Assembly (NCBI GenBank): GCA_965263235.1
Contig: OZ253667.1
Span: 2,116,575-2,180,574, forward strand
Source: Pseudomonadales bacterium
Lineage (GTDB): Bacteria > Pseudomonadota > Gammaproteobacteria > Pseudomonadales > UBA7434
DNA length: 64,000 nt
Reading direction: 5' to 3'
In this document: piece after piece, positions 60,101-63,100 of the stretch
Layout: every line of letters starts with the position of its first letter
Numbering within the stretch: position 1 is the stretch's first letter
Made by a program: the position numbers

Positions 60101-63100
60101 AACCGGTTAATGTTAGGCGTTTGGCGATAAGCGTCCACAAATCCAGCTCAACTTTTGCGCCACCCTGGACCCCTATATTGACGATACGACCCTCTTCGGC
60201 AGCAATTTTTAGATGCTTGTTAACGTACTCACCACCAACCATATCCAATATTACATTTATACCTGTTGGCTCTAGTTTATTGATTCGTTCAACAAAGTCT
60301 TCCTCGTAATAGTTAATTGCCGCGTCCGCACCAATATCCCGACAGAACTGACATTTCTTGTCGCTCCCCGCAGTCGCATAAACCTTTGCCCCAAAAGCCT
60401 TTGCCATCTGGATCGCCGCTACCCCAATCCCCGAACTGCCGCCATGCACAAGACAGCATTGCCCTGCTTTTAGCATTCCCCTGAAAAACAAATTCTCCCA
60501 AACCGTAAAATAGGTTTCAGGCAAGCTCGCCGCCTGAACCATAGTCAAACCGGTAGGGATTCGCAGGCACTGACCACGCGGAACAGAAACATACTCTGCG
60601 TAACCACCGCCATTCGTAAGCGCGCAAACTTTATCGCCTGGCTGCCACTCGCTGACGTTTTCGCCTGGTTCAATAATTTCTCCAGCAACTTCCAGGCCCA
60701 GGATTTGTGAAGCGCCCTTAGGCGGATAGTAAAAACCACGCCGCTGCATAATATCGGGGCGGTTTACGCCAGCGGCCGATACTTTAATTAATACTTCGTC
60801 GACACCAACGGTTGGTAAATCAACATCCGCTAACGTTAAAACCTCAGGACCACCATGTTCATCAGTAATTATCGCTTTCATCGTTTCAATCATTCGTATT
60901 CAAAAGTTTTACTCTTGTTGCATTTTTTTTGCTGGGCAAATAAAAATTTTGTCGCGAGAAAAAATACAGAACTTAAACAGCTGGTAATAATTGCAATATT
61001 TCCACTAATCAGAATTGGTGGTAGAATAGTTCAAAACCTGAAACTTTTTCAGATTTCTAGAGCTTGGCCTTCAAGGCCGGATTCGCGCAAAAATGTATAC
61101 AATAAGTGAGTCCGGCGGAAAGAACAAAGCTACTGCTGACGAACATAGAATGCGCATACCCCCAGGCCCACCACTTTCAACACAAGAGCTCAGGCAAATA
61201 TTTTTTGCTAATCCTTTTCCATTCTTCGACGAGTGTAAAAATGATTTCGGGAAAATCTTCACGCTCGACCTGGGAAACTTCGGTTGCAAAGAATTCAACT
61301 CAAACGGCCTGTGGGTATTCGTTTGCGGTGAAGAAAATAATAAGCTTTTGTCGCAATGCGACCCACATGTTGCATTACGCGGCGCAGGCCAGCTTATCAG
61401 TTTCTCTATCTTTGGCCCAATGCAGCGGAAGGCTCTTTTGTTTCAAGATGGAGACCGCGGTTTCAAACTGCGTAAAGACATTCTGGAATTGGTCAAACAT
61501 TATAGTAAAAGAACGATATCCCCAATAAAGTCGTTCGACGACAACGTCAAACAAAGTCTAAAGCACTTAAATACCCAGCGCCCAAATAGCCTAAGCGATT
61601 TCGTTACCAAAAACGTGTACACATCGCTATTTGAATCTGTCTTGCGTGGAAATAACGATGATCACCTGGAGCTCGAAAGCGTTCTGCTTAAGCCCTTTTT
61701 GGAAAATAACGTAGAGACCGAATTTAAGCACTATTTGCGTGAGGCGATTCCAGTTTTAGACGAGCTTATTTCCAAACGAAAACAAACATTAGGGGCTGAC
61801 GCTAACAAGAGACAAGACCTTTGCACTCTGGATATAGGATTGCTCGCCCAACGGGAAGGCTTCTCTATATCCGATGAGGAAATCCGCGACAACGCAATTA
61901 CCTATTTTACGCTTCGCGCAAAAATGATCTTATGCGTACTGAGTTGGTGTCTAGTTTGGCTAACTCGTGAACCTGAAGCAATGGAGCAAGTGCTGAACGA
62001 AATAAATCAGTTTGACGATAGTAAAGCGGTTAACTTCAAAGACGCTCCCTTTTTGAAAGCGTTTATTCGAGAGGTGTTTCGCATCAGCCCTATGCGCTCA
62101 AGGCACTCAGAAGTGTTACTCGCCGATAATATCAGCTTCGCCGGTTACGACATTCCCCGCGGCACCATGATGGCTAGCGTCCCATTCCTGACACATACTG
62201 ATCCCGAGCAGTTTGAAGATCCTTTTAGATTCGATGCGTCACGCTTCTTGCGACACGAATATTCTGAACAAGCGTGCAACGCTTTTGGCGTAGGGGGTAA
62301 TTTTGCTATTGAATGGGAAGAGCCCACGATTAATCGATCAGTTAGTTTTCTCGCCACGCTTCTACGGCATATAAAAGTTAAAGAGAAGAATCTTTCGTCT
62401 GCGCCGGAATGCTCTCATGGCATATATCTTCCCTGCTCCTTTAGCAAAGCGACTATCACTCCCCGTAATCCGCAATCGCTTCAGGAAGACTCTCACATAG
62501 TGCAAGGCGCCTAAAACCAACTAAAAGCGCACAAATCTGGCGTTCAATTGGTACCCGATCACCCTCTCGCTACTGAGCAATATTTTTACAATTGATGTAT
62601 TACCGCAGCCCAGGCGAGGCTGAGAATGCTTCGGGTAAACGCCAAACAAAGCCCGCATTAAAAACCAATAACAATCATATAGTTAGATTGCATAATTAGT
62701 GTAAATTTCATTAACACGTGAGTGCTCAGAGCACCGAGATCGCACAGGAATACAAGCAAATGTCATCTTTTAACTTCCATCTCAATTGATTGCTTCTTAA
62801 CCCCCACTGGGATAACATTCGTTCACCGCGCATAGCAAAGAAGCGACGATAAGATGATAGACGCGGTTGCGCCCTTTCTTCCCTCGAATAAGGAGGAGAG
62901 CAGCGCTTGTTTATTTATGTGATCACCACAGTGCTTAAGACTCAATGTCTCGTATTAAGAGACACGAAGTTGTAAAAAATAAAGTGTAGGCTCTGGGTTT
63001 CTTCACAGCATATTTGAAGAAAATTGCAGCAAAACAAATAGAAACAAACAGCGAGCCCGTTTAGCTTTGTGTTATTGAAAAGAGCTGACGGGAAGTGCGC

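Follow-up and report, generated by a model that had tools for sequence, protein, structure and literature searches.

A P450-fold protein without the heme-thiolate cysteine, encoded divergently from a PIG3-type reductase in Pseudomonadales

P450s are defined by the ligation of their heme through a thiolate. What, then, can a P450 homologue do once the thiolate is gone? We address this question for a gene of a Pseudomonadales bacterium (GTDB lineage UBA7434) that is located within a stretch of 64,000 nucleotides (assembly GCA_965263235.1, contig OZ253667.1, positions 2,116,575 to 2,180,574 of the forward strand), subsequently designated the window. An intact open reading frame (ORF) of 473 amino acids (aa), listed at 61093..62514 (+), had been described in a first-pass annotation of the bare sequence as a P450-fold protein that apparently lacks the axial Cys and the acid-alcohol pair of the I helix. 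That its product is under selection, devoid of the thiolate and not a monooxygenase is highly probable. The explanation that we favor as a whole, i.e. a complete soluble P450 fold that has lost the heme thiolate and was kept by selection for a non-redox role alongside a partner reductase, is one that we hold with slightly less than even confidence.

Heme-binding residues and selective constraint of the P450-like protein

All homologues begin at MRIPPGP, and the 19 additional N-terminal residues resulting from a start at 61093 are found in none of them. Therefore, translation likely starts at 61150 (M20 of the listed ORF), and residues such as H104, G256 and H319 are numbered from this Met. The P450 landmarks reported previously (PPGPP, EVFR, PFRFDASRF and LATLLRHI) are all present in the translated ORF. 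Structure prediction, which had been proposed as a check, returned a complete P450 fold: the AF2 model has a pLDDT of 85 and a pTM of 0.87, and Foldseek retrieved CYP51, CYP3A4, CYP46A1 and CYP11A1 at TM scores of ~0.7-0.76 (CYP51: TM 0.74, probability 1.00). According to this model, the gene product is a full-length P450-fold protein. Confidence is high for helices I, K and L, which form the overall cavity; further helices are predicted at residues 101-121 (C) and 125-138 (D), whereas a long extra helix at the N-terminus is not predicted. Values of pLDDT below 50 are confined to residues 383-389, which represent the former Cys loop, and to the C-terminus. In a control model of the Cys-retaining orthologue P0156, the 10-residue block means across the Cys loop were 73-75 as compared to 51 in the window protein, which weakly supports loss of the loop in the latter.

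Which residue occupies the column of the axial Cys? An alignment to the Pfam p450 profile had been suggested to settle this point. The Pfam match itself did not do so: PF00067 is detected well above threshold (E=1.6e-26; 93.5 bits vs. a cut-off of 22.8), but the local match covers residues 198-401 (profile positions 197-407 of 462) and ends before the Cys pocket. However, a hidden Markov model (HMM) built from 62 canonical relatives placed the Ala of the loop FGVGGNFAIE (62284-62313) on the 100%-conserved Cys column, and L-R-A-K-M-I, contained in the translation of 61909-61947 (TLRAKMILCVLSW), on G-G-A-D-T-T. In pairwise alignment by phmmer, FGVGGNFAIEW pairs with FGAGPRVCVGE of zebrafish CYP17A2, and a MAFFT alignment with 70 library relatives assigned Ala to the Cys column as well. 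When a profile of the family was aligned to P450 BM3, a one-residue insertion moved the adjacent Ile onto Cys400; the Cys was still absent. Thus, the earlier placement of Ala at the axial position, of Asn in lieu of the pocket Arg and of LRAKMI at the I-helix motif is upheld, the exact span of the latter being given in Table 1.

A survey of homologues for Ala versus Cys led to the same result. Cys is present at the axial column in 62 of 62 canonical relatives and in none of the five distinct members of the Cys-less family, so its absence reflects neither chance nor a sequencing error. The Cys in EQACNAFG, which had been named as the residue whose alignment to the ligand position would refute the assignment, falls on a column that reads C/F/L/F in the family and is not conserved. 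C29 in the A helix was rejected as alternative ligand: it is the only family-invariant Cys, but it is also found in 71% of the canonical relatives and belongs to the N-terminal domain. The I-helix motif reads ARAKTT, LFSQAI and NRATTC in homologues. In the window protein, Arg occupies the position of the heme-packing Gly, and Lys-Met that of the acid-alcohol pair.

To list the losses, residues conserved in at least 75% of the 62 canonical relatives were compared with the five family members. In the C helix, H104 (85% of canonical relatives) is replaced by G/R/R/R/R, and R108 (94%) reads R/K/H/H/N, leaving Arg in the window protein only. I-helix residue G256 (94%), which packs on the heme, became R/R/F/F/R, A261 (81%) became L/Y/L/V/F, and both T259 and T260 (~80%) are lost. 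R322 in beta1-4 (97%) is exchanged for V/T/Q/Q/Q, and the entire Cys-pocket loop F379-G-G-G-x-R-x-C-x-G388 (92-100%) is gone, with R384 missing from all members and the glycines replaced by Val, Ile, Asn, Pro, Glu or Phe. Small-to-large exchanges affect the heme-packing positions G256, A261, G381 and G388. The lost set comprises the thiolate ligand, three of four basic heme-propionate anchors, the oxygen-activation motif and the small porphyrin-packing residues. Among the basic anchors, H104, R322 and R384 have disappeared from all members and R108 persists in the window protein, while H349, a heme-propionate ligand in canonical P450s, is the only one kept throughout. Also retained are E308 and R311 of the ExxR motif (both invariant), W266 and the meander FxPxRF, whose R365 is present in four of five members (His in one).

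These residues are accompanied by others that are invariant in the family and rare in canonical relatives, namely Y252, S317, H319, S320, W389, E420, Y426 and S430. S317, H319 and S320 belong to substrate recognition site (SRS) 5 and occur in only 2-11% of the canonical relatives; W389, E420, Y426 and S430 were assigned to SRS6. Y252 aligns with F261 and H319 with F331 of BM3.

In the first-pass annotation, the protein had been suggested to be a P450 derivative with either no heme or an altered mode of binding it, and with a role other than as a monooxygenase. The sequence comparisons agree with both proposals: most determinants of heme binding are lost while the fold and the ExxR/R triad are kept, and the acid-alcohol pair and the thiolate are missing across a family that is under strong purifying selection. 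On this basis, the protein most probably lacks heme as well as oxygenase activity.

The family is extremely small. Among 5.8 billion clustered proteins, close relatives are limited to P0001 (98% identity) and P0002-P0005 (39-41%); when 1.84 billion representatives were scanned exhaustively with HMMER, none further exceeded 30% identity. A sequence identical to the 473-aa product is recorded on an NCBI contig of 2.98 Mb. Two motif scans of GTDB species genomes, with patterns for the Cys-less family and for the family plus its sister clade, returned no relative, and a motif scan of JGI metagenomes returned distant canonical P450s only and no family member. All pockets of the family lack the Cys, and their conservation is limited to a Trp three residues downstream.

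The gene is maintained by strong purifying selection rather than decaying, as judged from its substitution pattern. Its reading frame is intact in all lineages and ~100 columns are invariant among members that are only ~40% identical. Between the window and its 98% relative (locus L001), 35 nucleotide changes result in only 8 amino-acid changes, giving a ratio of nonsynonymous to synonymous substitution rates (dN/dS) of 0.078; the corresponding ratios are 0.055 for glpK, 0.060 for glpD and 0.158 for the neighboring MDR gene. We also compared four family lineages (pairwise identity 37-48%) with four canonical relatives of matched divergence (37-42%). The overall invariant fraction is alike (0.22 in the family vs. 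0.21 in the canonical quartet), but its distribution differs. Constraint is lower in the family at the Cys loop (0.08 vs. 0.67), the L helix (0.12 vs. 0.29) and the B-C region (0.06 vs. 0.26), and higher at the N-terminus and A helix (0.58 vs. 0.27), at beta1-3/K' (0.67 vs. 0.27) and at the B helix (0.33 vs. 0.11). It follows that the proximal face, which serves heme and redox partner, was free to drift, while the beta-domain and the new polar set became fixed.

Evolutionary origin and gene context

In a neighbor-joining tree the Cys-less proteins form one clade (100/100), whose sister group consists of P0010, P0011, P0155, P0156 and P0014. The sister proteins keep the Cys within a degenerate pocket and are devoid of the acid-alcohol pair. 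Both clades together are supported at 100/100 and sit on a long stem nested among canonical P450s. As Cys, pocket Arg, H104 and R322 are each retained in two or three of the three sister sequences compared, the sister proteins probably still bind heme. These alignments therefore portray what appears to be a natural series of heme loss, in which P450s at the same chromosomal position retain the Cys and are already atypical.

The Cys-retaining positional orthologues share with the Cys-less proteins the beta1 insertion NGLW, the chromosomal slot downstream of glpK-glpD and the divergent orientation to the MDR gene, whereas the trio of thiolase, ketoacyl-reductase and MaoC genes is absent from their loci. 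In sister locus L007, the order is isocitrate dehydrogenase (IDH), histidine kinase, patatin-like protein, glpK, glpD, MDR (-) and P450 (+), with identities to the window proteins of 83% for IDH, 62% for glpK, 65% for glpD, 52% for the MDR protein and 27% for the P450 homologue; L010 has glpD, MDR and P450 genes in the same order. Within the locus, no gene evolves faster than the P450-like one (41/39/27% identity vs. 52-86% for its neighbors). At least one sample of the sister clade is a marine biofilm metagenome (PMC6355793). Directly downstream of the P450 gene, three sister loci carry a convergent gene for a protein of 262-289 aa (L007 11464-12318, L010 4600-5388 and L015 1707-2576, all on the minus strand), which has a weak C-terminal PDZ match and 38-51% identity among the three copies, and which is absent from the window.

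Canonical P450s of the same lineage (P0008, P0009, P0012, P0013, P0157 and others) resemble the window protein in the N-terminal signature PPGPxLSxxEL..NPFPF..EC..YGD.F.L., in length, ExxR, meander FxPxRF and fold, and exhibit 26-30% full-length identity. Unlike the window protein, they keep FGGGxRxCxG, the I-helix motif GGxDTT, the C-helix His/Arg and the beta1-4 Arg. The nearest named relatives are labelled CYP110-like; identity to a protein designated 'P450 family 110' by JGI is 26%, which places the window protein below the 40% that delimits CYP110.

As described previously for the window, the P450-like gene diverges from an MDR reductase gene and lies next to a thiolase/reductase/dehydratase trio (Table 1), and this context is conserved in the orthologous loci. 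An MDR protein of 325-332 aa is the divergent neighbor in all four Cys-less lineages with context, i.e. window/L001, L002, L003-L006 and the P0005 contig, and the adjacency was seen in L001-L007, L010 and the P0005 contig. In the Cys-less lineages, the interval from glpD to the MDR gene is occupied by thiolase (NF006740), FabG4-type ketoacyl-reductase (NF006110) and MaoC hydratase genes, to which some of them add genes for a START protein or a dienelactone-hydrolase-type esterase, or 3beta-HSD/EthD genes. Since the additional genes surround the pair in Cys-less loci and the trio is missing in the sister clade, insertions have occurred around the MDR/P450-like pair and never inside. Canonical relatives lack such a pairing with an MDR gene; one of them adjoins SDR, enoyl-CoA hydratase and acyl-CoA ligase-type (AMP-binding) genes.

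Table 1. Coordinates of the P450-like gene, its diagnostic motifs and the neighboring features within the window
Feature	Position	Strand	Remarks
P450-fold coding sequence, heme-binding residues mostly lost	61150..62514	+	454 aa from likely start MRIPPGP
Degenerate Cys-pocket loop FGVGGNFAIEW	62284..62316	+	Ala 62305-62307 on axial-Cys column; Trp alone family-invariant
I-helix LRAKMI	61912..61929	+	replaces AGxDTT-type motif (GGADTT in aligned relative P0008)
K-helix ExxR (EVFR), kept	62071..62082	+	invariant in family and canonical relatives
SRS5 strand segment S317-R-H319-S320	62098..62109	+	S317, H319 and S320 family-invariant
MDR oxidoreductase, PIG3 quinone-oxidoreductase family	59895..60893	-	TIGR02824, 475.9 bits vs. 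cut-off 296.8, full length 4-327
Divergent intergenic region	60894..61149	.	consensus matches only
MaoC-like (R)-hydratase/dehydratase	58868..59812	+	
FabG4-type long 3-oxoacyl reductase	57447..58847	+	466 aa; NF006110
Thiolase, acetyl-CoA C-acetyltransferase type	55857..57143	-	NF006740
Upstream lipid/glycerol block: patatin-like lipase (-), glycerol kinase, FAD-dependent glycerol-3-phosphate dehydrogenase, START-domain protein	50834..55855		

The intergenic region between both divergent genes contains a consensus match to a sigma70-type promoter (TTTCCA-17-TAGAAT with TG extension, 60999-61027, +). An inverted repeat (CTGAAA-CTT-TTTCAG, ~61038-61052) is located 10-28 nucleotides downstream of this match and upstream of the P450-like gene. 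L002 and L003 possess an equivalent repeat, ATCTGA-N7-TCAGAT/G with the core TCTGA-N7-TCAGA. The repeat could be an operator or a hairpin in the 5' untranslated region. Horizontal transfer of the locus was rejected, as its GC content is not anomalous.

Several further features of the neighborhood were recorded. The thiolase gene differs from its L001 counterpart (4709-5995) at 2 of 1284 nucleotides with dS = 0, as compared to dS values of 0.05-0.10 in flanking genes, which suggests recent recombination or gene conversion. For the MaoC gene, dN/dS relative to L001 is unusually high (0.53). The product of the START-domain ORF (55073-55855, +) starts with a hydrophobic segment resembling a signal peptide, and at its longest the ORF overlaps with the end of glpD; the call in the relative is shorter (232 aa), and the gene is present in window/L001 and L002 and absent from L003 and L007. 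In L002 (865-2300 and 7934-8662) and on the P0005 contig, the block is extended by genes for a 3beta-HSD/epimerase-family dehydrogenase and an EthD protein, and by a dienelactone-hydrolase-type esterase gene between the MaoC and MDR genes. Together with START, these extra genes may indicate that the substrate is sterol-like or another complex lipid.

Downstream of the P450-like gene, ~650 bp (62515-63160) are free of any sizeable ORF. The next gene (~63162-64000, +) runs off the end of the window and encodes a Gly/Ser/Thr-rich, probably secreted protein; in its L001 counterpart (12013-12946) a frameshift splits the frame into calls of 138 and 180 aa, and a PEP-CTERM-like tail (VPVPAAFWLLGSAMFGLLSFKRK) is present. 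Further upstream, a stand-alone beta-ketoacyl synthase-like gene (47874-49205, +, 443 aa) lies between the genes for monomeric IDH and a histidine kinase; the syntenic locus L007 has no such gene at this position. The remaining window resembles ordinary chromosome content of the gammaproteobacterial type, with two IDH-type genes and genes for ClpX, a fabF-like ketoacyl synthase, RNase E, PilY1 and an MscS channel. Three tRNA genes (Leu-tag 6119-6203, Ser-tga 27901-27988 and Glu-ttc 41314-41389) were found in the window, and no other Rfam family reached the gathering threshold.

A putative accessory role and its alternatives

What might such a protein do? We propose that its ancestor belonged to a canonical bacterial P450 lineage and that the oxygen-activating acid-alcohol pair would have been lost first while the Cys was kept, as in the positional orthologues. 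Subsequently, in the lineage of the window, the proximal heme-binding face decayed and small heme-packing residues turned bulky, and constraint shifted towards the beta-domain at the N-terminus and a set of new polar residues that presumably line the former distal/substrate pocket. The remodelled pocket would then bind a lipid-derived molecule. The protein would be a binding or accessory partner of the divergently encoded PIG3-family NADPH oxidoreductase and, through this reductase, could serve the adjacent thiolase/ketoacyl-reductase/hydratase set. It might either present the substrate to the reductase or activate it allosterically, similar to the way in which EryCII assists the glycosyltransferase EryCIII.

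The lipid ligand is suggested by the content of the locus, by the canonical relative that is encoded beside enoyl-CoA hydratase and AMP-binding genes, and by binding of long-chain fatty acids to CYP110 (PMC1079853). The accessory role is proposed by analogy to EryCII, a heme-less P450 homologue that activates the adjacent glycosyltransferase (PMC3391682). Based on these parallels, the role that we favor, though at well below even odds, is that of an accessory or ligand-binding protein which recognizes a lipid-derived molecule and cooperates with the neighboring NADPH reductase.

Several observations weigh against this proposal. The conserved polar pocket residues fit a catalytic site equally well as a binding site, and retention of H349 together with invariant H319 leaves some room for an unusual mode of heme binding. 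The placement of residues as pocket-lining or cavity-filling relies on the BM3-numbered alignment and on BM3 heme contacts that we presume to apply. In sister-clade locus L016, glpD is directly upstream of the P450 gene and there is no MDR gene. Moreover, all loci come from related organisms sharing wider synteny, and the adjacency to the MDR gene may therefore be inherited gene order rather than functional coupling.

The alternative that survives best is a cofactor-independent enzyme, in which the pocket would have been rebuilt as an acid-base site comprising His319, Tyr252, Ser317, Ser320, Tyr426, Ser430 and Glu420. Such an enzyme would isomerise, hydrate or cleave a lipid-derived substrate, for instance an oxylipin, an epoxide or an enoyl/hydroxyacyl thioester, the product of which would then be reduced by the MDR protein. 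In accordance, the polar residues are invariant in SRS4, SRS5 and SRS6, where canonical relatives have variable and mostly hydrophobic residues, and purifying selection is strong. The Cys-retaining sisters already miss the acid-alcohol pair, suggesting that the ancestral substrate required no redox partner; in this respect they are reminiscent of CYP74 and CYP8A, P450s in which peroxides are rearranged and O2 is not activated. However, our literature search returned no earlier case of a P450 scaffold that is catalytic without heme, part of the pocket is not fixed, as is evident from R/F variation at position 256 and from the poorly conserved Cys loop, and the geometry of the residues is presumed from the alignment. 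We consider this enzyme unlikely, though a serious contender. A similarly doubtful, broader formulation is that, within a small lineage of uncultured bacteria, the P450 scaffold became heme-independent with a new polar site (His319/Tyr252/Ser317/Ser320/Tyr426) replacing the heme, the protein being either a cofactor-free enzyme for a lipid or sterol-like metabolite or an obligate specificity subunit of the PIG3-type reductase. The intermediate stages of cofactor loss would then be preserved in the positional orthologues that retain the Cys.

Improbable is that heme or another tetrapyrrole is bound through a ligand other than Cys (for instance His319, His349 or Tyr252), making the protein a heme sensor, a heme carrier or peroxidase-like. 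H349, found in 95% of canonical relatives, is indeed retained, invariant H319 aligns with a heme-contacting residue of BM3, and the helices forming the cavity are confidently predicted. These points are opposed by loss of three of four basic propionate anchors, by Arg or Phe in place of the I-helix Gly, by replacement of the Cys-loop glycines and by the lack of anything conserved at or beside the axial column, the Cys loop being the least conserved element with pLDDT below 50. Very improbable is a decaying relic, i.e. a pseudogene in the making: rapid evolution relative to its neighbors and extreme rarity would fit, but the intact frames in all lineages, the low dN/dS, the number of invariant columns, an invariant fraction matching that of the canonical quartet and the confident AF2 fold argue against decay. 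A terpene-synthase moonlighting site as in CYP170A1, raised by an NCBIfam match, was discarded, since homologues do not conserve the sole acidic cluster (NNDDHLELE).

Returning to the accessory protein that we favor, heme-independent activity or an obligate partnership with the reductase would, if proven true, make this locus of high interest. It would then be the second class of P450 descendants to have lost the heme independently, and the first that is unrelated to antibiotic glycosylation, and it may reveal what bacterial PIG3-type reductases act on. A retained fold, measurable purifying selection, an adjoining candidate partner and Cys-bearing positional orthologues without oxygen-activation residues are useful in combination, providing a natural series for the transition from a cofactor-dependent enzyme to a pseudo-enzyme or a new enzyme. 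The family also holds a warning for annotation: its only visible annotation is a precomputed Pfam p450 domain, the source records giving no protein names, and this label would be misleading for pathway inference.

Comparison with heme-less and class III P450s

P450 homologues without heme are already known; the present one is distinguished by having arisen independently, by its different candidate partner and context, and by intermediates that still exist. A literature search for other Cys-less or heme-free P450s retrieved the EryCII family only, and the activators EryCII and DesVIII are the only well-studied natural exceptions that we found, to which this locus would add a second, independent loss of heme. 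Membership of the window protein in this group of glycosyltransferase activators (EryCII, DesVIII, TylM3), with which it shares the absence of the axial Cys, has a negligible probability and was ruled out by the TIGR04515 score (11.1 bits, E=0.19, vs. a cut-off of 343), by the gene context, in which neither glycosyltransferase nor sugar genes were called, whether in L001-L010 or in the window neighborhood, and by its position in a different P450 lineage of the tree. The folds may differ as well: EryCII has an extra N-terminal A'' helix and lacks the C/C' helices (PMC3391682), whereas the AF2 model predicts the canonical helices including C, and EryCII was absent from the Foldseek top 50 for this model.

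Class III P450s (CYP74 allene oxide synthase/hydroperoxide lyase, CYP8A and CYP5A) need neither O2 nor a redox partner. They resemble the window protein in loss of the acid-alcohol pair and in a lipid (oxylipin) context, but they are heme-thiolate enzymes, whereas the window protein is without thiolate ligand. Plausibly, they model the ancestral state or that of the sister clade.

EryCII, DesVIII and TylM3, which function in macrolide and anthracycline pathways of actinomycetes, bind no heme, are not oxygenases, are encoded beside the enzyme they serve and have a mobile or poorly ordered heme region. The window protein differs from them in its independent origin within a CYP110-like proteobacterial lineage, in its predicted full set of canonical helices and in the predicted absence of an A'' helix. 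Where the EryCII type is paired with a glycosyltransferase in an antibiotic cluster, the window protein has an MDR/PIG3 NADPH oxidoreductase as neighbor in a lipid-catabolic locus, with which it may form a comparable partnership.

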